The notes: generated by a model not told the origin, from the letters alone. Shown: positions 1 to 27,098, counted from the stretch's first letter. The stretch is DNA of 64,000 nt from Escherichia coli (GCF_030013595.1 NZ_CP122768.1); one strand, 5' to 3'. Numbers and translations are program-made.

Positions 1-1
1 A

Positions 2-232
2 GCGGCGGCAAAGTGGCAGCAGCTACAACGCGGAGCCGCAGCGTTCTCCATCACATTGGCACGTGGACGCGCAGAACTCTACCCCGAAATGCATGGCACG
101 GTAACAGGCTTTAAAAGCGAGATTGATAATCAGGACTGGATTATTGCGAAAGCCGAGCACACCATTGATAACAGCGGCTTTACCACGCAGCTTGAGCTTG
201 AGGCAAAAATCCCGGAATGGATAGCAGAATGA
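2..232 (+). CDS. Phage tail protein D (P2 gpD / late control D family), C-terminal 76 codons; 5' end lies outside the window
   Basis: Frame 2 is open from the window edge to TGA at 230-232. The translation ...KWQQLQRGAAAFSITLARGRAELYPEMHGTVTGFKSEIDNQDWIIAKAEHTIDNSGFTTQLELEAKIPEWIAE resembles the gpD C-terminus as I remember it. ogr lies downstream on the same strand, as in P2. Confidence 0.75.
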   Translation, partial: AAAKWQQLQRGAAAFSITLARGRAELYPEMHGTVTGFKSEIDNQDWIIAKAEHTIDNSGFTTQLELEAKIPEWIAE

Positions 233-396
233 GACTCTTAAATGTATTAGTCCAGACACGTACTAGCGGGCTAAACGGCACAGTCTTATCTGACCATCTG
301 CCCCTGACACAGAGCAGACGGTCCTTGATCTTACCCACTAATAATGGACGCGCGACTAATATAATTTATTGCTTTTTATTTATACCTCACTGAGAT

Positions 397-1032
397 TTAG
401 CGAGCTAATATATTCAAAGAATTTAACAATTGAGTGTCGAGTGTTTCAGTTGCAGGAATCGGTAATCCATTCGCAATGCGGTAATTTTTCACAGACAGCC
501 TTGTGGATGGCCCCATTATGCCGTCAATATTTCCGTTATAAAATCCCCTGTCCAGCAATGCGAACTGAACTCGCATAATCAATCGCTTACGTTTCTCTGC
601 ATCAGAAGCAAGCCCATTACTCGTACGGTTAACCTCTGAAGTTCCAACAGAACTCGTGTTAGTGGTTCTATTATTATCGTTAGAACGAAGTGCACGCACC
701 GAGGAAGAGGACGATGAGGAACTTGCACCTGAACTTGAAGAACCAGATGAACTTGGTGAGCTGTATGTTTTTGGATAATAGGGGGTACTTCCACCATAGT
801 ATCCACCACCTGATGAGGATCTATGAGAGCTATGGCTCCTATGAGAACTATGGCTTCGATGCCCTGCGATATAAAATGGGACTTCCGTGTTAAGTGGAGC
901 TATCACTAAATCATGCTCATTAAGAGTCATACCAGGTAAATCACTCGCTCCTGTAGATGAATCGCTTGCCCATACAGAATTGTTGAGAGCCAAAAATCCC
1001 GGAAGTAGAGCAGCAAAATTAAACTTTTTCAT
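397..1032 (-). CDS. hxsA: HxsA-like His-Xaa-Ser repeat protein: signal peptide, 5 HxS repeats, Ser/Gly/Tyr-rich linker, C-terminal peptidoglycan-binding domain (211 aa)
   Basis: Start ATG at 1032 overlaps the hxsC stop (ATGA). N-terminus MKKFNFAALLPGFLALNNSVWA-SD looks like a Sec signal peptide. HRSHSSHRSHSSHRS is encoded at 817-861. The C-terminal LIMRVQFALLDRGFYNGNIDGIMGPSTRLSVKNYRIANGLP looks like PG_binding_1. Confidence 0.75.
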   Translation of the reverse strand: MKKFNFAALLPGFLALNNSVWASDSSTGASDLPGMTLNEHDLVIAPLNTEVPFYIAGHRSHSSHRSHSSHRSSSGGGYYGGSTPYYPKTYSSPSSSGSSSSGASSSSSSSSVRALRSNDNNRTTNTSSVGTSEVNRTSNGLASDAEKRKRLIMRVQFALLDRGFYNGNIDGIMGPSTRLSVKNYRIANGLPIPATETLDTQLLNSLNILAR

Positions 1033-2141
1033 AAAATTGGTCTCGGTGATTGATGAAAACGGCCTTTTGAGGAACTGAAATAGCCAGCACAGGAAGGCTT
1101 CTGAGTACATTCATCACATTCTTTTGGATAGTAATTTTTCCAATCAGAGATCGACTGAACAGCAAGCTCCCTAGCCCTTTCAGGAAGATAACACAAAGGA
1201 TAATTAAAAATTGTCAGAGGTATGCCTGACCTGTATGCAGCGTCTATGGCAGAGATTATTTTCTCACTATAACTACTGTGATCAATGAAGATGGTGGACC
1301 AGTTTTTTCGTGCCCAACCGATAGGCTCCAACCCCATAAGGGAAATCTGATTGATGTTGGAGAACACACGGCCAGCGAATTCTACGATATCATCCAATTC
1401 GGTATAGTTAGCCAGTGTAGGAATAACTCTAAGTTCGATATTAATCCCCAAGTTTCCTGCATTGATTAACCCTTTAACCGTTTCATTAAATGCGCCATCA
1501 CTCCCTACCAGATGATCATGCACAAGTGGTCTTGATGAGTAGAGCGGGATACCAAAGGTGATTTTGATCTTTTTGCTTCGCTTTGCCATTTCCTGTGTAA
1601 AGTTGGTATCAGCAAATTTGCGTCCGTTTGTTAAAACATGTAAAGCAGTATCTGGTGAATTCTCGATGATAAAATCAATGAAGTGAAGGAAGTCATCCCC
1701 ATATAGCAAAGGTTCACCACCGCTGACCCCAACAACTCCGTTCAAGCCAAATGAAGCTATAGCAAGAGCTGATTGGGTAAGTAGCCAGTCATCATTTATT
1801 TTCTTTGGTGGCTGCGAACAAAACAGACACAAGTTATTGCAGCGTTCCGTAACTAAGACAGTATTATGATTGGCTTTGCGTGACAGAATAACGCGTATCA
1901 TATTGCCATTGTTGATTATCCCAATATCTCCATCTTCAATTGACTCAAATAATTCAGTGCTAATAACAGAGAAATCAAAGCATGGTGGAATGGCATCATT
2001 ATTGCCTTCAGCAACTACTAGCAAATTGGGCAAAAAGAATAAAGGGTTCACTGGTTTTTGTTTGCATAACCGATAGAACCCCGTGGGCACGTTCTCTGTA
2101 GAAGCAAAATGAAAGATATCGTTCCTGATAACCTCAGACAT
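1029..2141 (-). CDS. hxsC: HxsC-like radical SAM maturase (370 aa)
   Basis: CX3CX2C motif CNNLCLFC. Second radical-SAM enzyme in a four-gene hxs-type operon. Overlaps hxsB by 8 nt and hxsA by 4 nt. Confidence 0.8.
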   Translation of the reverse strand: MSEVIRNDIFHFASTENVPTGFYRLCKQKPVNPLFFLPNLLVVAEGNNDAIPPCFDFSVISTELFESIEDGDIGIINNGNMIRVILSRKANHNTVLVTERCNNLCLFCSQPPKKINDDWLLTQSALAIASFGLNGVVGVSGGEPLLYGDDFLHFIDFIIENSPDTALHVLTNGRKFADTNFTQEMAKRSKKIKITFGIPLYSSRPLVHDHLVGSDGAFNETVKGLINAGNLGINIELRVIPTLANYTELDDIVEFAGRVFSNINQISLMGLEPIGWARKNWSTIFIDHSSYSEKIISAIDAAYRSGIPLTIFNYPLCYLPERARELAVQSISDWKNYYPKECDECTQKPSCAGYFSSSKGRFHQSPRPIL

Positions 2142-3522
2142 ATGCCCATCCTTTTAGCATCTCAGCCTTCGAACCACCCTCTGAGATGCAGTTCATCAGA
2201 TACCTGAACATCCCCTTGTGATATTGACAAAACGTTGAACGACTCCTATCACCGACAGGCTCACCCTGTACACTTATGTTCTGGCATGGATCTGAACCAC
2301 AAAATGGTTGATATGCACATGTATCACAACCTGGCAGAGCAAAATTGAACGATGAACTCAATACTGCGTTATAGTAAGGACTATCAGAAAATGATAGCGT
2401 CTTAACTTCACCCGCACTGAACTCCGTTTCAGGATTCACCTTCTGCAACATACGGCTCTCATCGCTACCATATACTCGACCGTCATAATTGAAAAGAATA
2501 CTGTTAAGCACGACTCCACTTGGAGACTTTAAATCCGCATAACCACTAAAACCGGGATTGAAGATCCTTTTCAGATGAATGGAGGCCGAATGTTCCACAA
2601 CCCTTATCCCTTCATTATTAATCTTAAGGATTTCATCTATCAACGAGGCATAGAAGCTGAAGTATTCGTCCATAGAAAAGGTGAAAGAAGCTTTTTGTGC
2701 AAACCCATAGGGACTAACAGGTCGGATAAACATGTCCTTGAGACCAAGAGACAAGTGAGCCTGAACAATCGATTCAGGACGTCTGATAAGCTCTTTAGTA
2801 ACTGTAGTAACCGTTGCAACGCGGCCAGCACCTAAAGAGTGTTTGATAGCCTCTACCCCTGACACTGTTCTACTGTACGCAAGCCCACGACCAAGAATTC
2901 GATTACTGTTGTGAACAACTTCCTCACCATCAAGCGACACAGAGAACGTTATGTTCCGGTCTCTCGACCATTCAATCATATCCTCATTCAAGACAGACAG
3001 ACTTGATGCCACCACCATCTCAAAATTGGTTCTTCCCAGCGTTTCAGCACATTGATCATAGATGCTCTGAATTAAATCAAACCGCAAGAGAGGCTCCCCA
3101 CCCTGTATCTCTATTTTGTAAGGTGGCGTTGATAGTTTTTTAATAGCCGAAATAATATCGGGGATGAGCTCAGGATTTAGGTCGTAACCTGAGGCATTAA
3201 CAGAAGCTCTACTAACCTGGCAATACTTGCATGTATGGTCACAACGTAATGTGGGTACAATCATGAAAATTGGCCTGACAGCCAGTTCATTCATCAATCG
3301 TTTTGCAAAAGCAGAACTTAAAGCATAGGGAGTTATAGCAGATGAGCTTTCACTGGTTATGAAAAGCTTACTTTCTAGCACGTTTGATTGCTCCGAACTA
3401 ATTCGCTCATCAGAAAGATCAATAAGGTCTTGCTCACCAATGAAATGATGAAAACCTGCAAGGTTGCTTATAAACACCTGTCCATTAGGCAATCTGTCAA
3501 AATTAAATGGCATCAATTCCAT
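2134..3522 (-). CDS. hxsB: HxsB-like radical SAM / SPASM-domain maturase (462 aa)
   Basis: CX3CX2C motif CDHTCKYC. C-terminal Cys cluster PGCDTCAYQPFCGSDPCQN...FCQYH is typical of SPASM/twitch auxiliary-cluster domains. Its start overlaps the hxsD stop (TAATG). Confidence 0.8.
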   Translation of the reverse strand: MELMPFNFDRLPNGQVFISNLAGFHHFIGEQDLIDLSDERISSEQSNVLESKLFITSESSSAITPYALSSAFAKRLMNELAVRPIFMIVPTLRCDHTCKYCQVSRASVNASGYDLNPELIPDIISAIKKLSTPPYKIEIQGGEPLLRFDLIQSIYDQCAETLGRTNFEMVVASSLSVLNEDMIEWSRDRNITFSVSLDGEEVVHNSNRILGRGLAYSRTVSGVEAIKHSLGAGRVATVTTVTKELIRRPESIVQAHLSLGLKDMFIRPVSPYGFAQKASFTFSMDEYFSFYASLIDEILKINNEGIRVVEHSASIHLKRIFNPGFSGYADLKSPSGVVLNSILFNYDGRVYGSDESRMLQKVNPETEFSAGEVKTLSFSDSPYYNAVLSSSFNFALPGCDTCAYQPFCGSDPCQNISVQGEPVGDRSRSTFCQYHKGMFRYLMNCISEGGSKAEMLKGWAYV

Positions 3523-3836
3523 TATGAAAGCCTCTCATCAACACTGCGAAGCACTTTATGGACAATAGAGTCTCTCAACGCCCCTGTTTTATGCTGTAGC
3601 TTTTCTCGCAAAGAGTAATCATTAAGCAGCCTATCGAATTCATAAAGGAATTTGGGATTATCGTTTTCAAAAGAGATTATCCAGTGGGAAACGTCTTCAT
3701 GGAGTTTCCATCGAGTAAGCGGAGTCATCCAATATAGACTATTGCGTATAACCCATTCAGAATATAGTTCTTTCTCAAACACTCTTTCGCTCATTGCAAT
3801 TATCTTCCAATACAAATATTCATGATCAGCAACCAC
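3522..3836 (-). CDS. hxsD: HxsD-like protein (LLNDYxLRE family), 104 aa from GTG 3836 (alternative ATG at 3794)
   Basis: Contains FDRLLNDYSLREKL, which matches the LLNDYxLRE signature that names the HxsD family (TIGRFAMs, from memory). First gene of the operon. AGGAAAAA lies 11 nt upstream of the GTG. Confidence 0.75.
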   Translation of the reverse strand: MVADHEYLYWKIIAMSERVFEKELYSEWVIRNSLYWMTPLTRWKLHEDVSHWIISFENDNPKFLYEFDRLLNDYSLREKLQHKTGALRDSIVHKVLRSVDERLS

Positions 3837-3866
3837 TTTAAAGCGGATTTTTCCTATGGCAACAAT

Positions 3867-3892
3867 AATATAACATATCCATAGATATGTTA
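3867..3892 (-). promoter_or_regulatory. Candidate hxs promoter (-10 TATATT at 3867-3872) with a 9+9 bp perfect palindrome TAACATATC-cata-GATATGTTA (3871-3892) in the spacer
   Basis: Read directly from the hxsD-ogr intergenic region. The palindrome position is operator-like. The -35 element is weak. Confidence 0.35.
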
Positions 3893-4046
3893 CAGATGCC
3901 TTGTTTCCCGTTGACTAATACATCACAACGTTAGTAATGGCTATCACAATTGTGAACTTCCACTTTTCACACAAGACAAGCTGTTAATTGGAATCTGTAT
4001 CAGTACAACTTAGAATATCGGAAGCACCACAGTAAGGGAGGTCGCT

Positions 4047-4307
4047 ATGTTCCGTTGTCCGCTTTGTGGCGCATCCGCCCGAATCCGCACCAGTCGTCCG
4101 GAAAATGATTCAAACACCGTGCGGCAAAAGTATTACCAATGTAACAACCTAGAATGCGGCGTATGCTTCTCAACACTGGAAGCTTTCCATAAATTCACAT
4201 CAAAACACGCCTCCGGCGCTCACTCTTCAGAAGGTATCCCGTGGCATGAACTGCCAGCTTCACACAAAGGAAACAATCAGATGAGTTTGCCCTTACCTCA
4301 AAATTAA
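4047..4307 (+). CDS. ogr: Ogr/Delta-family zinc-finger late transcription activator (86 aa)
   Basis: MFRCPLCGASARIRTSR...YYQCNNLECG gives the CX2C-N22-CX4C Ogr zinc motif. Strong RBS AAGGGAGG. Lies downstream of gpD as in P2. Confidence 0.8.
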   Translation: MFRCPLCGASARIRTSRPENDSNTVRQKYYQCNNLECGVCFSTLEAFHKFTSKHASGAHSSEGIPWHELPASHKGNNQMSLPLPQN

Positions 4308-4497
4308 CAGGCAGAATTGCCGGAGTAACAAAAAAGAGATAGATTACGCGCGGGTGCCTTTCGGCTGATGGTCGGAGGGAATACCCGAAGGCCAGATGTG
4401 GAAAGGCCCCGGAAAACATTTCTGTTTAACCGAGGCCCTAACCGCATTACCTTGACAAGTGAAAGGTTAGCGCCTCTCCGGAAAAGGAGCAAGTGCT

Positions 4498-4638
4498 ATG
4501 TCGCAAAAATCGCTTACGGCCATCATGTTCTGCGTGACGGCAATCCTCATCATCTGGATGTTGCACGGTTCGCTGTGCGAAATACGGATGAGATTCTGGG
4601 GAGCGGAGTTTGCGGCGTTCTTACAGTGTAAGCAGTAA
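4498..4638 (+). CDS. hok: Hok/Gef-family type I toxin (46 aa)
   Basis: MSQKSLTAIMFCVTAILIIWMLHGSLCEIRMRFWGAEFAAFLQCKQ has one TM helix plus the Hok-family SLCEIR motif. AAGGAG RBS. Too short for the ORF track. The overlapping 87-aa frame 4368-4631 is positioned like mok. A GACGGGGGA-gcaa-TCCCCCGTC hairpin follows at about 4650-4671. Confidence 0.75.
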   Translation: MSQKSLTAIMFCVTAILIIWMLHGSLCEIRMRFWGAEFAAFLQCKQ

Positions 4639-4726
4639 GGAAACCGCGACGGGGGAGCAATCCCCCGTCAATCGGTTGCCAGGGTAAGGTCGATAAGGCA
4701 CCCTATCTCACAGACATGAACAACAA

Positions 4727-4759
4727 ACCCGCAACGTAAAAACTGCGGGTTTTCTTTTT
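4727..4759 (+). terminator. Rho-independent terminator closing the ogr/hok side
   Basis: Stem ACCCGCA/TGCGGGT followed by TTTTCTTTTT. Confidence 0.6.
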
Positions 4760-4901
4760 GGTGTCCTTACTGACTTGAAACGGTGATCAGACTATAAGAC
4801 AAAGCCCACAATGTAGCGGGCTTACTCCCCTCTCCCTCCACTGAATGTGGACACATGGTGGAACGAAGATATATAAAACATTATAAATCAATCGGTTACT
4901 G

Positions 4902-4928
4902 AAAGAAAAAAGGCCGCAGAGCGGCCTT
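4902..4928 (-). terminator. Rho-independent terminator downstream of the 4949-5164 gene
   Basis: Stem AGGCCGC-aga-GCGGCCT followed by a T-run on the minus strand (A-run 4904-4910 on plus). Confidence 0.7.
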
Positions 4929-4948
4929 TATGGTTTATTGACAATTGA

Positions 4949-5164
4949 TTAAGACGTGTGGCACTTATTGGCACACCAATAGCAACCATTCACCCGGGAA
5001 TATCCTTTGGCCTTTGCCTCTGTTACCGCCGAAGAACAATCACTATAGTAACCAAGGTAATCGCGGTTAGCTACAGCAGGAAGATATGAACATTCCTCAG
5101 CATGCACCTCATGATCGCCATTGCTCTGAGCATTTTTGTTCACGTAATAGTGTTTAAAAACCAT
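4949..5164 (-). CDS. Small Cys/His-rich protein of unknown function (71 aa); self-contained cargo gene (moron)
   Basis: MVFKHYYVNKNAQSNGDHEVHAEECSY...NGCYWCANKCHTS. Has its own RBS GGAG, an upstream TTGAAA-17-TGTAAT promoter-like sequence and its own terminator. Confidence 0.55.
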   Translation of the reverse strand: MVFKHYYVNKNAQSNGDHEVHAEECSYLPAVANRDYLGYYSDCSSAVTEAKAKGYSRVNGCYWCANKCHTS

Positions 5165-5287
5165 TGTATAACTCCATGTTGACGCTGATATTCAGCATTA
5201 ACATGCTATATCACCAATTACACAAACATAAGCTTGTTATTTCAATTAGTTGATAACGATCACCACTGAACTTTGGCCTTGCGAAAT

Positions 5288-5497
5288 TCAAATGTTTTTC
5301 TGACTATTATTGGGCCGATAAACAGATATTATTTGAGCGTTTTGGTTCATTACATAAGCAATATCTCCATCTTTCAGAATGACTTTCCCATCCTTTCCCG
5401 ATACGGCAATACTCCGCTGCTCAGGATGATAGCCAATGCTACGCCCGCAATGGATCTCTTCCCCACCATTTTGAGACATGACTTTTACAGTTAACAT
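5288..5497 (-). CDS. Hypothetical small protein (69 aa; start uncertain)
   Basis: ORF only; I recognise no motif. Confidence 0.3.
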   Translation of the reverse strand: MLTVKVMSQNGGEEIHCGRSIGYHPEQRSIAVSGKDGKVILKDGDIAYVMNQNAQIISVYRPNNSQKNI

Positions 5498-5584
5498 TTT
5501 TCTGCTCCTATTTAGATGCCCTTTCCATCCGGGCCACTGTTCAAAGTAAATTTAGATTCAACAATATTCTGCTCTTACAGGCGA

Positions 5585-5767
5585 TCAGTTCTGCATACAC
5601 TGCCGAACACCGTCGACAATTTCACAGACCTGAGAAGCTGTATCGAAAAGCTGGCGCGCCTTATCCAGGCTGACGCATCCCACCAGGAAAAAAGGCACCA
5701 GTATCGCTACCAGTGCCCATTTCGCCGCCGTTCGCGGCATTCTGTGTGTCCAGTGTTTTCGCTTCAT
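5585..5767 (-). CDS. Putative small lipoprotein (60 aa)
   Basis: MKRKHWTHRMPRTAAKWALVAILVPFFLVGC has a lipobox (LVGC) after a hydrophobic stretch. Confidence 0.4.
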   Translation of the reverse strand: MKRKHWTHRMPRTAAKWALVAILVPFFLVGCVSLDKARQLFDTASQVCEIVDGVRQCMQN

Positions 5768-5771
5768 CTCA

Positions 5772-5906
5772 CTATCCACCAATCAATCCGGATAAGCTCA
5801 ATACTCGCCAGGCGGTGGAAATGAAAATGGCAACCAACATTGCTGAAAATGAAAGGCCAACAACCACACAGAGAATTCGCGCCAGTTTTATAATGCTATC
5901 TGACAT
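5772..5906 (-). CDS. Putative single-TM peptide (44 aa)
   Basis: MSDSIIKLARILCVVVGLSFSAMLVAIFISTAW... Start chosen at an internal ATG. Weak call. Confidence 0.25.
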   Translation of the reverse strand: MSDSIIKLARILCVVVGLSFSAMLVAIFISTAWRVLSLSGLIGG

Positions 5907-5923
5907 ATTTACCCCTGCCCCAC

Positions 5924-6106
5924 TTACGATTTCACAGCAATGAGCAATTTTGCCATCCCATACAGCATCGGAGACACAGCGATACCGACCGCCACCCACT
6001 TAATGGCAAAAGCCACCGCTCTGCTGATGTCATCAGTTACAGGCGCTTTCAATTCAAGGCCGTTTTTCATAGTCAACCTCAACAGAATTAGTTTATACTT
6101 CCTCAT
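5924..6106 (-). CDS. Putative small membrane protein (60 aa)
   Basis: C-terminal hydrophobic segment AFAIKWVAVGIAVSPMLYGMAKLLIAV. Start uncertain (6127, 6106 or 6070). Confidence 0.25.
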   Translation of the reverse strand: MRKYKLILLRLTMKNGLELKAPVTDDISRAVAFAIKWVAVGIAVSPMLYGMAKLLIAVKS

Positions 6107-6138
6107 GTTCTCCTTTGCCTTACCCAAGGCCAGAAACA

Positions 6139-6173
6139 GAAAACCCCGGACTGTTACCGCAGCCGGGGTTTTT
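6139..6173. terminator. Bidirectional hairpin terminator immediately downstream of the endolysin gene
   Basis: AAAA-CCCCGG-N13-CCGGGG-TTTTT, with T-runs on both strands. Confidence 0.6.
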
Positions 6174-6266
6174 GCTATCTGATGCTATGCCCCTTACTTT
6201 CGCTCATCGTAGCCCCAGAAAAGAGCCTGCATGAGTTGAGGGTGTTCAGCACTTCAGTGTCAGTTT

Positions 6267-6812
6267 TTAAACCACCACGCGCTCTTTCATCCAGCCATAG
6301 ACAAACGACTCATTGGCCTCGCGTTTCTCTGCCAGCTCCAGATAACGCTCGCCCTGCGTACAGTTCAGGGCTTTCACCAGTACCAGTTCACCATCCCTGC
6401 TGCGATTTTTCAGATATGCCCGTAATGCATTAAGAGTACGCGGCCCGATGCGTCCATCAGCATCCATATCCGGATAGAGTTTCCCGCGCAGGTTGAAAAC
6501 GTTCAGCCAGCGCTGAAGCATTCTGGACGCCACAGTTGGCCCCATGTTCACGCCCGTATCGCACAACTCTGCGGCAATATCCGGAGACAGGTCCTCAACC
6601 TGGTCGAATCGTGGTCCGTACCAGTAGTCCGCCTCGAGTATTTCCAGCGCCTGCCCACGCGTCAGGTCACGCATATCGCCCTGATAACCGTGTGCACGGG
6701 CAACTTTTTCAGTGATGCCCCATTTAGTCGGACCACCTTTATCATCCGGGTGATTGACGTAACCGCCCTCTTTTCCCAGAATTTCGTCAAAAATTTCATC
6801 TTTCGACTTCAT
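6267..6812 (-). CDS. Endolysin, glycoside hydrolase family 108 N-terminal domain plus PG_binding_3-like C-terminal domain (181 aa)
   Basis: MKSKDEIFDEILGKEGGYVNHPDDKGGPTKWGIT is the GH108 signature as I remember it. Follows two holin-like genes. Confidence 0.8.
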   Translation of the reverse strand: MKSKDEIFDEILGKEGGYVNHPDDKGGPTKWGITEKVARAHGYQGDMRDLTRGQALEILEADYWYGPRFDQVEDLSPDIAAELCDTGVNMGPTVASRMLQRWLNVFNLRGKLYPDMDADGRIGPRTLNALRAYLKNRSRDGELVLVKALNCTQGERYLELAEKREANESFVYGWMKERVVV

Positions 6813-6813
6813 A

Positions 6814-7092
6814 TCAGCGCCTTCGTAATACAAGGATTTTTGATACGTTCCCGCGTGCTCGTATCACCAGCACGCAGAACACCAGGTTAATCAGGACGAC
6901 CAGCCAGTTACCGGGAGGAAAGCGACCACACAGATAACAAAGCGGCGCAAAGGCATAAAGCAGCATCAGCAGCCAGGCCAGCCACGACATCAGCGGTTTA
7001 TGTCTCGACTCACCACGACGATAAAAAAAGAGCGTCAGCACGATAACCGTGCTTAACACCACATTCAGTAATCCGGGAAGGTTACTTAACAT
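6814..7092 (-). CDS. Holin-like small membrane protein (92 aa)
   Basis: Three hydrophobic segments and a basic C-terminus (KILVLRRR). Lies in the lysis cassette immediately upstream of the endolysin. Confidence 0.6.
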   Translation of the reverse strand: MLSNLPGLLNVVLSTVIVLTLFFYRRGESRHKPLMSWLAWLLMLLYAFAPLCYLCGRFPPGNWLVVLINLVFCVLVIRARGNVSKILVLRRR

Positions 7093-7471
7093 TACCGCCT
7101 CCACCCCGCAGACGGGAGAACAGCCCGGATACCAGCGATGCGATATCCTGCTGGTGGATGAATGAGAGAATCTTCACCGACACCACCGATACCAGTACCG
7201 CACAAAGCGCGTCGAGAGATGTGCTGTGGAGATTCAATTTTTCGACCAGCCAGGACGCAAGGACATCCGCCCCCAGCACGCCAACAATGAACGACACCAG
7301 AAAATGCGCCGCCACACGCCAGACAGAAATCACCTGTGGCATCGTGGCCACAAACAACGCCCCGGCAAACGCGCCAAACACAATCCCGAAATCCGTCCCG
7401 GTAAACAGCCCGAATACCGTCGCCCCGCCGAGCGCCACAGCAGTGCTGGAACCGGATAAGGGTTCAGACAT
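7082..7471 (-). CDS. Phage holin-family membrane protein (129 aa)
   Basis: MSEPLSGSS... has four Gly/Ala-rich hydrophobic segments. First gene of the lysis cassette. Start chosen at the internal ATG 7471. Confidence 0.55.
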   Translation of the reverse strand: MSEPLSGSSTAVALGGATVFGLFTGTDFGIVFGAFAGALFVATMPQVISVWRVAAHFLVSFIVGVLGADVLASWLVEKLNLHSTSLDALCAVLVSVVSVKILSFIHQQDIASLVSGLFSRLRGGGGNVK

Positions 7472-7670
7472 ATTTATTCTCCTGTAAATAAAAAGGACCA
7501 TCAGCGGCCCCGTAACTGACATTTTATTAACGTTTGAAGATATGGATATTTATCAGGGTTTACCGTTTTCTGAACCCTGGATATGTTAAGCATTCAGCCC
7601 GCCAGTGGTGGGACGCTGGCTCATCATAGAGAAAGAGGGATGGCTGATTACCTCTGATCAGGGAAATCAC

Positions 7671-7940
7671 ATGCAGTTTTTACATAAAAGAATGCATTTA
7701 AATGCAGGAGATACGGTAGTGGTTGACTGCTCTCATCAGTGCAATATTTTGCTGATGACAGATACAAACTTTAATAACTACCGCAACGCAAGAAGCTTTC
7801 ATCATCACGGTGGTGGCGGTTTTTTTCAGAGATTACCGGCCCACCTTCATGTACCGCATTCAGGTTACTGGAATATTACAATTGATTTAGGAGGCGGAAG
7901 TGCAGCTATTCGGCACTCCATTTCCGTCATCCCAGCATAG
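7671..7940 (+). CDS. DUF1883-like protein (89 aa)
   Basis: MQFLHKRMHLNAGDTVVVDCSHQCNILLMTDTNFNNYRNARSFHHHGGGG... recalls the DUF1883 family found in lambdoid/Stx prophages (from memory). Opposite strand to the late operon. Confidence 0.55.
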   Translation: MQFLHKRMHLNAGDTVVVDCSHQCNILLMTDTNFNNYRNARSFHHHGGGGFFQRLPAHLHVPHSGYWNITIDLGGGSAAIRHSISVIPA

Positions 7941-8252
7941 CAACTCGCCTTTAGCCTGAGTAAATGCGTCCTCAAGGACGGCAACGAGTCGCAGTTGCGT
8001 GCCGTCCTTTACACAGCGTGTGCAGGCAATACCTTCAGAACTTTCATTATGCCGAGCTCATACAATTTCACCATTTTGTTCAACTACAACGCTCATAATT
8101 TTCTTACACTTTTTTAATAAACCACACCAATAACAACCATCACCGATACCTTTTGTATGCTGTTATTTTGCATTACGGTGTAACGGCAAGAGCCCCCTCC
8201 CCGCCCTGAAAGGCTCTGTGTTTTTGATGTGCGCCTGATGTGGCTCAGATAC

Positions 8253-8275
8253 AAAAAAGCTCGCAGTAGCGAGCT
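8253..8275 (-). terminator. Rho-independent terminator downstream of the 8299-8577 gene
   Basis: Stem GCTCGC-agta-GCGAGC with a T6 run on the minus strand. Confidence 0.6.
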
Positions 8276-8298
8276 AACAGAAAATATGAAGCATGTTT

Positions 8299-8577
8299 TT
8301 ATCCACGAAGTATGACGTTGAATTCATCCATACCGACACGGCTGGCTATCTCGTTGTATTCCTCAACAAGAGCCAGCAATTCTGAATTAGCAGCCATGAA
8401 CTCTTCAAAAACCTTATGGATGGCATCACTGTTTAATAAAACAATGTTCTTTCCTGAAAGGCGATCAGGGGTAGAAAATATAACTGTCAAACGACTAAAG
8501 GCCCTGGCTCGTTCAGCATTAACATCCTCAATACGCTGCAACAAGCTGGAGCACCTGGAAATATCATCAATATTCAC
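8299..8577 (-). CDS. Hypothetical protein (92 aa)
   Basis: ORF with its own terminator; no recognisable motif. Confidence 0.4.
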   Translation of the reverse strand: MNIDDISRCSSLLQRIEDVNAERARAFSRLTVIFSTPDRLSGKNIVLLNSDAIHKVFEEFMAANSELLALVEEYNEIASRVGMDEFNVILRG

Positions 8578-9095
8578 TCTACTCCTGCCATCTGGATGAT
8601 AATCATTTCACGGAGAGAAGCACTCAGAAGTACCACTGAAGTATAGCTGGTGACCAGCTACTTACACATCTATTGCCATCCTGCTGATGATAAGTCGACA
8701 TTAGCCCTTCTGTCTATAAACGAAACAAAGGATAAGTTCAGGTTTTAAACACACTGCCAGGATAAAGTATTGTATACAGTATAGAAGAGCGTTATTGAAT
8801 GACATAAAAAACCAGACCTAATCCCTTATCCGGAAGATATATCAAATAAACGGGGAAAATGTATTAAGATGGCGTTCCTATTCTCTCCATCCCTGATGTC
8901 CACGTAACTCGTTATAGAATCAGAACGCCATCTGAATACACACAAAAAAGCTGACTTCACACCCTCCAGATGTGTGAACGCAGTGCCCGACCACGTGCTT
9001 TCGCAACCAGCACAAATCATTTTAAAGCATCGAAAAACGATCAGAATATATCAGAACTTCCTAGCATCCTGCTTGGCTTAGATATTAATCGAGGA

Positions 9096-10181
9096 TTAGC
9101 TCCTGTTCTTATCTAATTGTGCATTTCGCAATTTATCGTTCAGCACCAATATTTCACCAACTGTTTGTTCAAAACGCCCGGACTCAAGTTCAACCCCAAT
9201 CGTGCGACGCCCCAATCCCATTGCTGCTTTTATTGTTGCCCCCGATCCCATAAAAAAATCCGCAACCACATCCCCCGGACGACTGCTGGCAGAAATTATC
9301 TGACGCAACATATCCGCCGGTTTTTCGCAGGGATGCTTACCCGGATAATACTGCACGGGCTTATGCGTCCAGACGTCCGTATAAGGAACGGCGGCCGATA
9401 CAGAAAAATAACGCCGCAGAGATTTGTATTCCTCAAGCAGACTGGCATATTGCCGGTTCAGTTCACTGTATGTGCTGACCAGTTGCTGGTGTGGCGTTGC
9501 CAGCTCCCCACGCTGGTGCTTTTCTTCTGCAACACACGCGAACAGCGCCTGCAGTTTTCTGTAATCAGCTTCGTTCGGTAACTGCCACTGACAGGTACCA
9601 AACCAGTGCGACACCATGTTTTTCTTTCCGGTGGCTTCCGCTATCTGTTTGGACGTTATCCCCAGTGATTCACGCGCATCACGGAAGTAAGAAATCAGCG
9701 GGGCCATGACGTGTTGTTTAAGCTCGCGCTCCTTTGCCGCATAGCCATCATTTTTTGGCTGGTATGGCCCCTGATAATGTTCGGCAAACAGAATGCGCTC
9801 TGTTGCCGGGAAATACGCCCGCAGGCTTTCTTTGTTGCACCCGTTCCAGCGTCCGGATGGCTTCGCCCAGATAATGTGGTTCAGCACATTAAAGCGCTCA
9901 CGCATCATGATTTCGGTGTCAGATGCCAGGCGATGACCACAGAACAGGTAGAGACTTCCGGCAGGTTTCAGTACCCGCCAGAACTGAGCCAGACACTGAT
10001 CCAGCCATTTCAGGTAATCATCGTCGCCCTTCCACTGGTTATCCCAGCCCTCGGGCTTCACTTTAAAGTATGGCGGGTCTGTGACTATCAGATCGACAGA
10101 GTTTTCCGGTAAGGTCTGGATAAATTCCAGGCAATCAGCGTTGATTAACTCACAACTGGATATTTTTACAGTATCAACCAT
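9096..10181 (-). CDS. DNA methyltransferase (N6-adenine/N4-cytosine type, beta class), orphan (361 aa)
   Basis: Motif IV DPPY (VTDPPYF) is near the N-terminus and motif I FFMGSGAT near the C-terminus. No adjacent restriction-endonuclease-like ORF. Confidence 0.85.
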   Translation of the reverse strand: MVDTVKISSCELINADCLEFIQTLPENSVDLIVTDPPYFKVKPEGWDNQWKGDDDYLKWLDQCLAQFWRVLKPAGSLYLFCGHRLASDTEIMMRERFNVLNHIIWAKPSGRWNGCNKESLRAYFPATERILFAEHYQGPYQPKNDGYAAKERELKQHVMAPLISYFRDARESLGITSKQIAEATGKKNMVSHWFGTCQWQLPNEADYRKLQALFACVAEEKHQRGELATPHQQLVSTYSELNRQYASLLEEYKSLRRYFSVSAAVPYTDVWTHKPVQYYPGKHPCEKPADMLRQIISASSRPGDVVADFFMGSGATIKAAMGLGRRTIGVELESGRFEQTVGEILVLNDKLRNAQLDKNRS

Positions 10182-10331
10182 AGATCAATAAGCACTTCTC
10201 TGATAGGCTCATACCGCTTTTGCGCAAAGCAGATGGGCCTGAGGTTTGCTTGTGACCCTAACGCATGAGCAGATGGCTGGCAGGTGCCGCTAACACCCAC
10301 CAGCCGCCCATTACCACAAATGAAAAAACCT

Positions 10332-10529
10332 TCACTGCGGAAGGCGTCTGTAACAACCGAACTGATAATCTGCCAGACCCGCCATAACAAGCTGGGTCAG
10401 TATTAACTGACAGCGTTCGCGTGAAAGGTAAGTATTCTGCGCAATTTCCCCAACTGTTGCCGGTTCAGTGACGCTTAATTCATTAAACACCACTCTGGCT
10501 GTTTCGGTCATATCCTGCTGTTTTAGCAT
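10332..10529 (-). CDS. Small hypothetical protein, possible winged-helix (65 aa)
   Basis: ORF immediately upstream of the methyltransferase in the same direction. Segment TVGEIAQNTYLSRERCQLILTQL is HTH-like. Confidence 0.4.
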   Translation of the reverse strand: MLKQQDMTETARVVFNELSVTEPATVGEIAQNTYLSRERCQLILTQLVMAGLADYQFGCYRRLPQ

Positions 10530-10702
10530 GTCTTTTTCTCTTTATTGGTTAACGTGACATACCAATAACTCTTGTCGAAAAAGCCAGCAAGCTGAAAGAC
10601 CGGTATTAATAACCACCTGCACATTTTATGTACCGAACCATTTTTCTGGCATAAAAAACCTCTCAATGGCGGGCGGTAAAAATCTTTGTTACTCAAGAAA
10701 TT

Positions 10703-11416
10703 TTAACGCACTCTGACTGTATTAATTTCAAAATCATTAATATTTCCGCTATTAAATATAACGAATTTCTTACCCCCACTCCTGTATGATTTCGATAACA
10801 CCAGACGATCATCATAACGCGCAATAATGTAATACCATACATTCTCATAGTGGATCGCCTGATATTCCCTCTTAAACTGTGGTTTGTACCAACCGGCAAT
10901 AAGAGAGAATGCCCAGAAATAAATCATAAACCCAGCCATCATGAACTCAATTCGGTGATGACGAATAAAAGACATTTCCGAAAAACATTTGACTGAAACA
11001 AGTCTTCTTCCAAACCTGACAAAAAGCGTGATTGTAAAGGCAGCAAGAATGCAGAAAATCAGTACATCTGGCTCAACATGCTGATGGATTACCGAAAACT
11101 CCAGAACAGGTGGAATAAAAAGCAGCAATATCGCGAGAAAAAGCCGGATAAAACTCAAATTTTGTATATTGCGCTTTTGTTTTATGCCCAAAAAGAAAAC
11201 AATACCAACTCCCCATCCAATAAGGAATATAACGATAACTGTCACAGCATAAAACAAACTTCGTGCTACATCATCGACACCAGCCCCGACAACCCACCAT
11301 GGAAAGCCATAGTAAAATGAAGTACCCCATCCATAGAAATAAGCGCTTCCCCATCCTAGACAGCCCATATAAGCAACAAAAAGTGAAGAGTTTCTGAGCA
11401 GAGCACTGTCATCCAT
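10703..11416 (-). CDS. AT-rich multi-TM membrane protein with a soluble C-terminal domain, unknown function (237 aa)
   Basis: About 5 hydrophobic segments, then a C-terminal beta-rich region (YENVWYYIIARYDDRLVLSKSY...). About 33-35% GC in spot counts. First ORF downstream of pR'/tR'. Confidence 0.55.
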   Translation of the reverse strand: MDDSALLRNSSLFVAYMGCLGWGSAYFYGWGTSFYYGFPWWVVGAGVDDVARSLFYAVTVIVIFLIGWGVGIVFFLGIKQKRNIQNLSFIRLFLAILLLFIPPVLEFSVIHQHVEPDVLIFCILAAFTITLFVRFGRRLVSVKCFSEMSFIRHHRIEFMMAGFMIYFWAFSLIAGWYKPQFKREYQAIHYENVWYYIIARYDDRLVLSKSYRSGGKKFVIFNSGNINDFEINTVRVR

Positions 11417-11553
11417 AGTAACACCATTAACAACTCAAAAATATCAACACATATTACATAACAAATTGGATTCCATGCAGTCAAGGGGCGTCATTGATGG
11501 AGAAAGTATTGGCACAATCATCATCACGTTTAATGTCTATGCCATTTTTTTGG

Positions 11554-11585
11554 GGATAAAAAAACCCGCTCGGTCACGGGTTTTA
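11554..11585 (-). terminator. tR'-like intrinsic terminator downstream of the late promoter
   Basis: Minus strand reads AAACCCG-tgaccgag-CGGGTTT followed by TTTTTTT. Confidence 0.65.
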
Positions 11586-11634
11586 CTAGCTTTGCCATCA
11601 CGTATAAAAACGGCAAAATATCAGATTCACACGA

Positions 11635-11663
11635 AATATATGCCTTTTTATCTACTTTTGCAA
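11635..11663 (-). promoter_or_regulatory. pR'-like late promoter (TTGCAA-17 nt-TATATT)
   Basis: Near-consensus sigma70 hexamers with a 17-nt spacer, immediately downstream of the Q-like gene and about 50-70 nt upstream of the terminator. Confidence 0.5.
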
Positions 11664-11670
11664 TACTTTG

Positions 11671-12342
11671 CTATGAAAATGCCGCCTTTTGTTTTGAACG
11701 TGTTCCCTCCACCAACAATAAAGCTTCACCATCCAGCCGATGAAAAATGTGTTTCATTGCAACCCAGTGACCAGTAAATGTCTTGGACCAGTTTTTGGTT
11801 GTTACTCCCACCAGTAACGCCAGTTCCTGGTATTCGTAACCTTCCCCACCAAAAAGCTCAGCTTTTACCGCCTGCGCCGCCAACCAGATCAACGTCTTCA
11901 GGCGCACCAGAGTTTTTCCTGCAATTTTTCTGGTACCGGATTGAGCATTAAATTCAGTCCACGCCCACTGCGTTATCGCGATCTGATGCTCCCAGCAAAT
12001 GCTACCGCTGTAACACCACAGCAGCCAGGCTTTATGATGTTCTTCAAGAGACAGAACGGCGCGTCGCCATGATGATGTCGAAAACTCAACCGGACTGACC
12101 AGGGCAATTGATGAACCTTTCACCAGCGATTGCTTTCCCGGGATCGGTGGATTATCCAGCGTTACTATTTTTCCAGTGACCTTATCGCGGTACCGGATTT
12201 TTTTACGTCTGTAACGCCCTGTATTGAACATGGCATTCTCCTGCCAGGCTTCAAGCTGACCTTTTGTTGCTCCACTCAAATCAGCGGTGGCGATCATGAG
12301 CTGCTCACGCACAAACTGTAAATACTGGTTATTCATGCGCAC
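11671..12342 (-). CDS. Probable late antiterminator (Q-like), 223 aa
   Basis: Mainly positional: directly after rusA (10-nt overlap) and directly before a promoter-plus-terminator unit. I do not recognise the sequence with certainty. Confidence 0.55.
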   Translation of the reverse strand: MRMNNQYLQFVREQLMIATADLSGATKGQLEAWQENAMFNTGRYRRKKIRYRDKVTGKIVTLDNPPIPGKQSLVKGSSIALVSPVEFSTSSWRRAVLSLEEHHKAWLLWCYSGSICWEHQIAITQWAWTEFNAQSGTRKIAGKTLVRLKTLIWLAAQAVKAELFGGEGYEYQELALLVGVTTKNWSKTFTGHWVAMKHIFHRLDGEALLLVEGTRSKQKAAFS

Positions 12343-20655: not shown

Positions 20656-20750
20656 ACTTATATGGTCTGACGGAAAACTCCTGGATTCCGTTATTTAACC
20701 CCCCATCACTTTCTGCTGTCGCCATCACCTATTAGGTTACGATCAAAACA

Positions 20751-20793
20751 TTAGGCATAGCCTATTGACAATCAATTAGGCATTACCTATAGT
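20751..20793 (+). promoter_or_regulatory. OL/pL-like region: consensus promoter TTGACA (20765-20770)-17 nt-TATAGT (20788-20793) overlapped by two TTAGGC-N3-(G/A)CCTAT operators (20751-20765, 20776-20790)
   Basis: Read directly. Same half-site as the OR operators. Confidence 0.65.
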
Positions 20794-20970
20794 TCCAGCA
20801 TACCACCCACCCCGCCCCACAGAACGCAGGGCAATACTTCGAGTTACCAGGCAGTGGTCAGGGGTTAAGTAGCCAGCCCGAGGCGTAAGAACATGACGGC
20901 AGGGTTCAACTTTAACTATGCAGCAGGTTTTTGTTCCGCCACCCCGGCGTTAAGGGGAAATGAGGTCAGC

Positions 20971-26953: not shown

Positions 26954-27029
26954 GATTTTTCTTGGTGTCAAGTCTGATTAACTTTTCGGATATTTTCCGT
27001 ATTATACTGATTTTTCTTTATTTTTCTTC
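26954..27029 (+). repeat. Three direct copies of (G)ATTTTTCTT between int and the att core; possible integrase arm-type sites
   Basis: GATTTTTCTT at 26954-26963 and 27009-27018; ATTTTTCTTC at 27020-27029. Confidence 0.3.
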
Positions 27030-27088
27030 GGTCTTGAAAACCGGCGACCCGAAAGGGTTCCAGAGTTCGAATCTCTGCGCTTCCGCCA
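27029..27088 (+). tRNA. serT: 3'-terminal 60 nt of tRNA-Ser(UGA) serT (anticodon loop to CCA). This is the att core at the prophage right junction and is not a complete gene.
   Basis: cggtcttgaaaaccggcgacccgaaagggttccagagttcgaatctctgcgcttccgcca matches serT from the anticodon stem onward (from memory). The 5' acceptor/D-arm portion is replaced by AT-rich phage DNA. Confidence 0.85.
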
Positions 27089-27098
27089 AATAAGATAA

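Follow-up and report, generated by a model that had tools for sequence, protein, structure and literature searches.

In the 64,000-nucleotide (nt) stretch of Escherichia coli DNA analyzed here (GCF_030013595.1 NZ_CP122768.1; hereafter the window, with all positions counted from its first letter), the end of a P2-like prophage meets the lysis region of a lambdoid prophage. We consider this region, with a probability of about 85%, to be the junction of two prophages, where a P2-like guest is nested in a lambdoid host prophage by site-specific integration. Positions 1–4926 represent the right end of a P2-like (P88/Xuanwuvirus-type) prophage, comprising the carboxy-terminal end of gpD, hxsACBD, ogr, hok, the right arm and the attachment (att) core. 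From position 4927 to ~27093 the window carries the lambdoid prophage, which is integrated at serT. The join has the anatomy of integrase-mediated recombination of the guest attP with a secondary attB, termed attB' in the following; the two att sites bordering the nested guest are accordingly termed attL' and attR'.

The two prophages join at the attachment core of the guest

We compared window positions 1–12000 with 5,426 complete E. coli genomes. Positions 4907–12000 were matched at 99.9–100% identity by one set of strains and positions 1–4935 at ~99.5% by another, the two sets of matches overlapping on a GC-rich hairpin at the junction, and not one of these genomes matched both sides. The hairpin at 4909–4929 is a bidirectional terminator. 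Where the P2-like prophage resides at its chromosomal site, attL at btuC (gtgaAAAGAAAAAAGGCCGCAGAGCGGCCataaacac / cgacagtgaAAAGAAAAAAGGCCGCAGAGCGGCCataaacac) and attR at ihfA (ttgAAAGAAAAAAGGCCGCAGAGCGGCCtttttagtt / ggttattgAAAGAAAAAAGGCCGCAGAGCGGCCtttttagtt) have a 25-bp core in common; this core is the transcription terminator of ihfA. The attB' of the uninterrupted lambdoid phage (aacatgAAAAAGGCCGCAGAGCGGCCtttatggtt / ttaacatgAAAAAGGCCGCAGAGCGGCCtttatggtt) has 20 nt in one contiguous stretch in common with this core and 23 contiguous nt in common with the ihfA terminator site.

The attR' of the window (ctgAAAGAAAAAAGGCCGCAGAGCGGCCtttatggtt / ggttactgAAAGAAAAAAGGCCGCAGAGCGGCCtttatggtt) exhibits a core of which the phage-type left part is joined to the lambdoid right flank. 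Positions 4907–4926 are the 20 nt common to the core and attB', and the crossover is therefore placed within them. Precise excision of the guest would be expected to leave the attB' sequence aacatgAAAAAGGCCGCAGAGCGGCCtttatgg. A first-pass annotation of this DNA had proposed to search positions 4308–6266 for an att core, and the 25-bp core was indeed found there, at 4902–4926; a second copy was sought throughout the window, in which the core occurs only once. The same annotation had reported neither morphogenesis nor spanin genes between the lysis cassette and the D-ogr end. The segment 4308–6266 is not empty: besides hok and the att core it holds the right arm of the P2-like prophage and, on the lambdoid side, five small conserved open reading frames (ORFs). 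The features of the P2-like part, the junction and the outer lambdoid landmarks are as follows.

1–232, plus strand: carboxy-terminal end of gpD, a P2-type tail protein (last 77 codons); full-length with 367 amino acids (aa) in contig L016 of the same lineage (PF05954, Phage_GPD)
397–1032, minus strand: hxsA (this and the next three from RefSeq annotation of identical DNA, and Pfam)
1029–2141, minus strand: hxsC
2134–3522, minus strand: hxsB
3522–3794, minus strand: hxsD
4047–4307, plus strand: ogr, P2-type late-gene activator with an Ogr/Delta zinc finger (PF04606, 52 bits)
4352–4638, plus strand: hok/sok-type toxin module with the hok ORF at 4498–4638 (PF01848, phrog_251)
4639–4901: right attachment arm of the P2-like prophage, 99.5% identical to the ihfA-adjacent arm of other strains
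4902–4926: att core of attR', 25 bp, AAAGAAAAAAGGCCGCAGAGCGGCC
4949–5164, minus strand: small lambdoid ORF, 71 aa, phrog_4298, within the first lambdoid DNA (4927–5497)
5288–5497, minus strand: small lambdoid ORF, 69 aa, phrog_3909
11671–12336, minus strand: lambdoid antiterminator Q (PF06323), source of the late transcription running leftwards into the junction
~25868: int of the lambdoid prophage
27029–27093: int-proximal att of the lambdoid prophage, a 65-nt duplicate of the 3' part of serT, forming the outer right boundary of the composite

Within the hok/sok-type module, a match to the sok/hok leader-like RNA family RF01794 at 4352–4511 scored 49.4 bits, under the gathering score of 59. 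The genes ogr and gpD had been described as meeting the lysis genes in opposite orientation; both are present and on the plus strand, but they are not adjacent to each other, as hxsA-C-B-D (397–3794, minus strand), a His-Xaa-Ser radical-SAM cassette, separates them as a 3.8-kb cargo.

The reciprocal junction occurs in an independent genome

Nesting predicts a left junction, attL', composed of the lambdoid left flank, the core and the P2 int arm, which we wrote as the 34-mer AACATGAAAAAGGCCGCAGAGCGGCCATAAACAC / ttaacatgAAAAAGGCCGCAGAGCGGCCataaacac. This 34-mer was found in the IMG/VR contig 2737471845_000015. Left of the core, the contig encodes a gpA-type large terminase and, in the small-terminase position, a DUF1441 gene, both on the minus strand, along with a 440-bp stretch of homology to the lambdoid cos-proximal region. 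Right of the core follow a P2-like integrase, a helix-turn-helix repressor and the early region up to the replication gene. The attR' of genome 2737471845 is located on contig _000016.

In the coordinates of contig L001, the attR' flank in the window corresponds to 12001 onwards and the attL' flank in contig L021 to 11580–12020; the lambdoid flanks of the two sites are thus contiguous in the uninterrupted phage, where they overlap by 20 bp. In its left part, the core is of the lambdoid type (catgAAAAA) in attL' and of the phage type (AAAGAAAAAA) in attR', exactly as predicted by reciprocal exchange within the shared 20 nt. For genome 2737471845, the guest arm is 93.9% identical to that of the window and the lambdoid flank 99.1%. 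This combination of a diverged guest arm and a near-identical lambdoid flank marks a second, independent insertion at the same site. Together with this reciprocal junction, the data back one of the two possibilities originally raised for the locus, namely a P2-like prophage inside a lambdoid prophage of which the structural genes are displaced. Displacement, rather than deletion, is most likely also what the structural genes experienced in the window's own lineage.

The lambdoid prophage without the insertion

The closest genome, HCP5S3_I2, is 99.9–100% identical over window positions 4907–64000, without P2 DNA in the prophage. Starting from serT, its contiguous prophage of ~45 kb comprises tail fibre, J, tail, head, portal, terminase and nu1 genes and the cos region, and ~1 kb past nu1 come the same small ORFs, endolysin, holins, Q, replication/immunity genes and int as in the window. 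EC42405 exhibits the same layout, with an exact lambda-type cosN (AGGTCGCCGCCC, this strand) ~420 bp left of attB'. The secondary site is flanked by the last of the small ORFs behind the lysis cassette on one side and by cos-nu1 on the other. Of the features by which the phage is classified as lambdoid, Q, the lysis genes, int and the serT att site are located in the window and the cos-to-tail genes in the uninterrupted relatives only. In line with the initial description, which had reported no terminase, neither terminase nor a lambda-type cos was detected anywhere in the window.

The attB' was found empty in 23 IMG/VR viral contigs, all identical over ~85 nt around the core, and occupied in two IMG/VR genomes. 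The cos-proximal segment bearing attB' occurs in combination with no fewer than two different terminase modules and cosN variants (AGGTCGCCGCCC and ACGCTCCCGCCC, this strand), as seen by comparing contig L021 (1–4138) with L001 (10873–11580). The target hairpin thus travels among lambdoid phages within a mosaic module. Capture of attB' from the chromosome was considered as well; the homology to the ihfA locus is limited to 29 nt, so that capture cannot be claimed.

The guest at its chromosomal site

A P2-like prophage lies between btuC and ihfA in TD225-C4 and ETEC1730. The same right end occurs in at least 45 complete genomes, and all inspected copies adjoin ihfA. A look-up of the exact Ogr protein, read for the 24 blocks with the longest contigs, yielded ihfA contexts and one other site only. 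At the DNA level, the D-ogr-hok end is 94–97% identical to P88-type phages; P88 itself was recovered after mitomycin C treatment and has a different attP of 14 bp. The assignment as P2-type is based on Ogr_Delta in the window and on the Phage_GPD, sheath, tube, GpE and tape-measure families in contig L016 of the same lineage. Relatives of the guest carry the full P2-type set of head, tail, lysis and replication genes, including int-C-cox, gene A, cos and the capsid side.

Reportedly, as described by Barreiro and Haggard-Ljungquist, phage P2 uses secondary attachment sites, termed loc sites. The present locus resembles these in that a P2-family integrase accepts a site partly identical to the core. 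Unlike the loc sites, the secondary site is here borne by another phage, is identical in 23 of 23 lambdoid contigs and was used at least twice independently.

A known prophage at the chromosomal site is PP_SE11-4 of E. coli SE11, a P2-like element of 35.8 kb described as located 'between btuC and ihfA' with a 25-nt duplication (PMC2608844). The 25-bp core determined here agrees with that duplication, and the guest shares both attachment site and duplication with PP_SE11-4. In contrast to PP_SE11-4 and P88, the guest resides here at a secondary site inside another prophage, and unlike the sequenced P88-type phages it has hxsABCD inserted in the interval from D to ogr.

The window's own lineage

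The Hok variant encoded in the window is rare, with 45 index blocks versus 6,700 for Ogr. A look-up of this hok variant retrieved 24 contigs, 20 of which carry the exact junction, and in the other 4 the phage with the window-identical variant is located at ihfA. The hok/sok-type module is located at the far right of the guest, adjoining the att arm, and the variant marks the nested lineage. Altogether, the junction is present in ~20 draft assemblies. One contig of this lineage, L016, shows a single base difference from the window over 14.6 kb and reaches 5.5 kb further left, where it encodes full-length D and, on the opposite strand, FI and FII (sheath and tube), E, E' and T (tape-measure). 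With these tail genes intact, the guest amounts to more than a D-ogr stub; its intact part measures at least 11 kb. Another IMG genome, 2778261251, has 99.97% identity to the window in the DNA spanning the junction.

Alternative explanations

Several observations weigh against nesting as described above. A 561-nt query centered on the junction did not retrieve it from any of the 5,426 complete E. coli genomes, and the exact attR' and predicted attL' sequences had no match in the genome and metagenome collections. The ihfA-type attP, as reconstructed, is found in no sequenced phage record, so that the guest can be regarded as a putative active phage only. Furthermore, the similarity between attB' and the ihfA locus is confined to 29 nt (27/29). 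For the window's lineage the left junction was not seen, the window starting in gpD and the contigs of the same lineage stopping inside the guest; the intact int/C/cox/cos side of the guest and the lambdoid left half are what we infer for this lineage.

The unseen left flank, with all same-lineage contigs ending inside P2-like DNA, and the absence of the junction from the complete genomes would be compatible with an integration followed by later loss or rearrangement. Either the P2-like prophage would adjoin a lambdoid prophage truncated by deletion of its cos-to-tail half, or an Int-mediated or homologous exchange between an ihfA-resident P2-like prophage and attB' would have inverted or translocated part of the chromosome, leaving the structural genes elsewhere or lost. 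Such a course is also suggested by published prophage-in-prophage hosts, all of which were defective, and by the inter-prophage inversions seen there (PMC8112680). We nevertheless judge it unlikely, as the exact reciprocal attL' lies beside lambdoid terminase genes in an independent genome, the lambdoid right half of the window aligns without a break, at 99.9% identity, with a prophage that appears complete, and at least 11 kb of the guest are intact in L016. It would moreover require two events, versus one for simple insertion.

The other possibility raised in the first-pass annotation was a single mosaic phage, in which a P2-type virion module under Ogr control would be combined with lambdoid regulation and lysis and packaged as one genome. 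Besides the adjacency itself, a GH108 endolysin in relatives of the P2-like phage argues for it, reflecting some module sharing between phage groups. However, the two halves join exactly at the guest att core and each half occurs alone in many genomes, the P2-like one at btuC/ihfA in at least 45 complete genomes, whereas of 50,697 phage records none extends over both sides. The composite would also hold two integrases, two lysis systems and two packaging systems, and its estimated 80–85 kb would exceed the capacity of either capsid according to established packaging knowledge. With its gene order in no sequenced phage record and a guest att core at the join, the single hybrid phage did not withstand the analysis and is very improbable. 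Even less credence is given to an assembly artefact, i.e. a false join across the shared 23-nt hairpin: an exact repeat of 20–23 nt is indeed common to both sequences, but the same junction was obtained in ~20 independent NCBI draft assemblies and 2 IMG genomes, the reciprocal junction exists, and the left-core types fit a real reciprocal exchange.

Proposed mechanism and predicted consequences of nesting

We propose that the guest combines a P88/Xuanwuvirus-type tail/ogr end with an integration module that normally targets the ihfA terminator (btuC-ihfA). Int-mediated recombination would have taken place between its attP and the secondary attB', a 20–23 nt terminator copy in the serT-integrated lambdoid prophage. 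In the window's lineage, the lambdoid cos, terminase, head and tail genes would thus persist intact beyond ~35–39 kb of P2-like DNA, a size estimated from PP_SE11-4 (35.8 kb) and from the ETEC1730 copy (~39 kb including two insertion sequence (IS) elements).

Late transcription from Q/pR' would run leftwards through the lysis genes and the small ORFs and enter the guest at position 4926. Within the guest it would oppose hok, ogr and D as antisense transcription, whereas hxsDBCA and the FI-T tail operon would be read in the sense direction, and it would have to cross ~35–39 kb before reaching cos-nu1-A. The cos-to-cos unit would increase from ~45 kb to ~80–85 kb, beyond the capacity of a lambda-type head. 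Infectious lambdoid particles would therefore need prior excision of the guest, precisely restoring attB', and the guest likewise would have to excise for packaging from its own cos. These expectations of read-through, oversize and excision-dependence are based on the biology and packaging of lambda and P2. Particle production by the host prophage is thereby expected to hinge on guest excision, a point relevant to how polylysogens govern which of their phages is released.

The attB' is identical in 23 of 23 contigs and was used at least twice, and one nested lineage is stably inherited in ~20 assemblies. These observations could be taken to suggest that attB' near cos is not an accidental site but a maintained landing pad setting up a two-phage hierarchy, which we regard as rather doubtful. 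As a landing pad, the site may hold the ~35 kb guest between the lambdoid late promoter and the packaging/morphogenesis genes, and the cos-to-cos unit would be oversized. The resulting dependence of lambdoid particles on prior guest excision may act as a reversible lock, similar to helper-embedded satellites or regulated gene integrity, and the guest with its co-oriented hxs cargo may be amplified and transcribed upon induction of the host prophage.

Comparison with known nested elements

Prophage-in-prophage arrangements were reported for Shiga toxin-producing and enteropathogenic E. coli (STEC/EPEC), where lambdoid/Stx (Shiga toxin) guests integrated via attB copies inside prophages (Nakamura et al. 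2021, PLoS Pathog, PMC8112680). Those copies exhibited 100–309 bp homology to chromosomal loci and were located near prophage ends, and the host prophages were all defective (PMC8112680). The present locus is a further case of this already described arrangement, sharing with it the E. coli host, entry by the guest's own integrase into an attB copy in a prophage, nested attL/attR sites and the occurrence of the guest also at its chromosomal site. It differs in four respects. The guest is here a P2-like myovirus; attB' is a terminator hairpin of 20–23 nt without flanking chromosomal homology; it is placed centrally in the late region, with the lysis genes on one side and cos on the other, and not near a prophage end or effector locus; and the host prophage looks complete in uninterrupted relatives. 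P2-like phages are not mentioned in PMC8112680, and no paper in the searched library pairs them with the term prophage-in-prophage. The arrangement is thus extended from lambdoid-in-lambdoid to a P2-like guest and a hairpin-only attB in the late region. For annotation, the locus would have to be treated as two nested prophages and not as one hybrid or a truncated remnant, and prophage callers would otherwise merge or mis-bound them.

The locus resembles the helper-embedded PICI satellites (HE-PICI; PMC10111431) in that the late region of a lambdoid prophage harbours a mobile element, and similarly, passive host transcription and replication into the guest and a wait for excision are expected. 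Unlike HE-PICI, the guest is not a satellite, as it has its own tail genes and, in relatives, the full phage set; its insertion site is an intergenic terminator rather than the interior of a late gene; and most of it, including D, ogr and hok, is opposed to host late transcription. Membership in HE-PICI is ruled out by these own tail genes, the intergenic site and the opposed D, ogr and hok. A helper relationship between the lambdoid phage and the guest is neither known nor implied.

Lysis cassette and small ORFs of the lambdoid prophage

The lambdoid genes next to the junction comprise a phiP27-type lysis cassette (6267–7471) and, behind it, three tightly packed small membrane/lipoprotein ORFs (5585–6106).

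5585–5767, minus strand: lipoprotein, 60 aa, lipobox LVGC, phrog_7528
5772–5906, minus strand: small membrane-protein ORF, 44 aa, phrog_4906
5924–6106, minus strand: small membrane-protein ORF, 60 aa, phrog_1115
6139–6172: strong hairpin just downstream of the endolysin gene, with an A-run before and a T-run after
6267–6812, minus strand: GH108/PG_binding_3 endolysin
6814–7092, minus strand: holin, Phage_holin_3_7
7082–7471, minus strand: holin, Phage_holin_8

ORF and family matches confirmed the two holins and the GH108 endolysin that had been proposed on the minus strand at 7471–6267. The hairpin at 6139–6172, aaaaaCCCCGG-11 nt-CCGGGGtttt, has a folding energy of −27.5 kcal/mol compared with −13.2 ± 3.0 kcal/mol in shuffles (z = −4.8), and it was missed by a consensus terminator scan because its loop of 11 nt is too long. 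The strong hairpin noted previously is thus present, but it does not mark the end of the late unit as had been assumed. In uninterrupted relatives the hairpin is found at the same place, followed by the small ORFs, cos and terminase on the same strand. This retention, together with the gene order of phiP27, indicates that the late operon normally contains both the hairpin and the small ORFs in its interior.

The cassette had also been described as lacking spanin genes, which the comparison with phiP27 does not bear out. Phage phiP27 has a minimal separated spanin pair, the shortest two-component spanin, with the o-spanin at 20706–20861 (Kongari et al. 2018, PMC6139136); this o-spanin exhibits the lipobox LVGC and a mature part of 30 residues. 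The Rz1-sized lipoprotein encoded at 5585–5767 is identical to the listed phiP27 o-spanin in 57 of 60 residues. Based on this similarity, the lipoprotein is a homologue of the phiP27 o-spanin and the cassette is not demonstrably spanin-less. The ORFs 5772–5906 and 5924–6106 may be membrane partners of the lipoprotein: their membrane-protein products (44 and 60 aa) fall into PHROG families without an assigned function and have periplasmic parts that appear very short, and no homologue of the listed phiP27 i-spanin was identified among the ORFs beside the lipoprotein. Pfam and PHROG searches of the five small ORFs returned unknown-function families only.

Similar to the window and its uninterrupted relatives, the phiP27 virion genome contains two holins, an endolysin and small ORFs, followed by cos and terminase. 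In contrast to phiP27, the endolysin of the window belongs to GH108 and is not the phiP27 enzyme, and other ORFs lie between endolysin and lipoprotein. Window positions 7600–9100, from the holins to a methyltransferase, correspond to the position of stx2e and two tRNA genes in phiP27; the window has there a DUF1883 ORF (7671–7940, plus strand) and a 92-aa ORF, and tRNA genes were detected nowhere in the window.

Gene order and cargo in the guest and its relatives

The gap between D and ogr (window 233–4046) represents a variable cargo slot of these P2-like prophages. It is occupied by hxsA-C-B-D here and in at least 45 complete genomes and is often hit by IS elements. A copy near flk/fabB contains a 340-aa ORF in this slot and another copy a 930-aa ORF together with a HetE-N protein (L008 8787–9809, L009 6688–9806). 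In sequenced P88-type phages, D and ogr are ~1 kb apart without cargo. In a PADLOC search with the Hxs proteins, HxsB and HxsC showed no more than weak, generic similarity of the radical-SAM (pVip) kind, which does not allow a role in defence to be claimed.

The FI-FII-E-E'-T(-U) tail operon is opposite in strand to gpD and V-W-J-I-H-G, with a divergent region between FI and D (L016 1–5735, L004 10684–16259). In P2 and 186, the FI-to-T tail genes, gpD and V-W-J-I-H-G are all co-oriented. Relatives of the guest furthermore encode their own holin and GH108 endolysin (L004 3978–4901), the latter exhibiting ~81% DNA identity to the lambdoid one over 533 nt. The composite would therefore contain a pair of related lysis enzymes, a possible substrate for homologous exchange between guest and host. 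Finally, the ETEC1730 relative of the guest carries ParM and a partition/stability protein between the replication and portal genes (L005 3696–4971), which constitutes another cargo position; in P2, the region between replication and portal genes contains tin and old.

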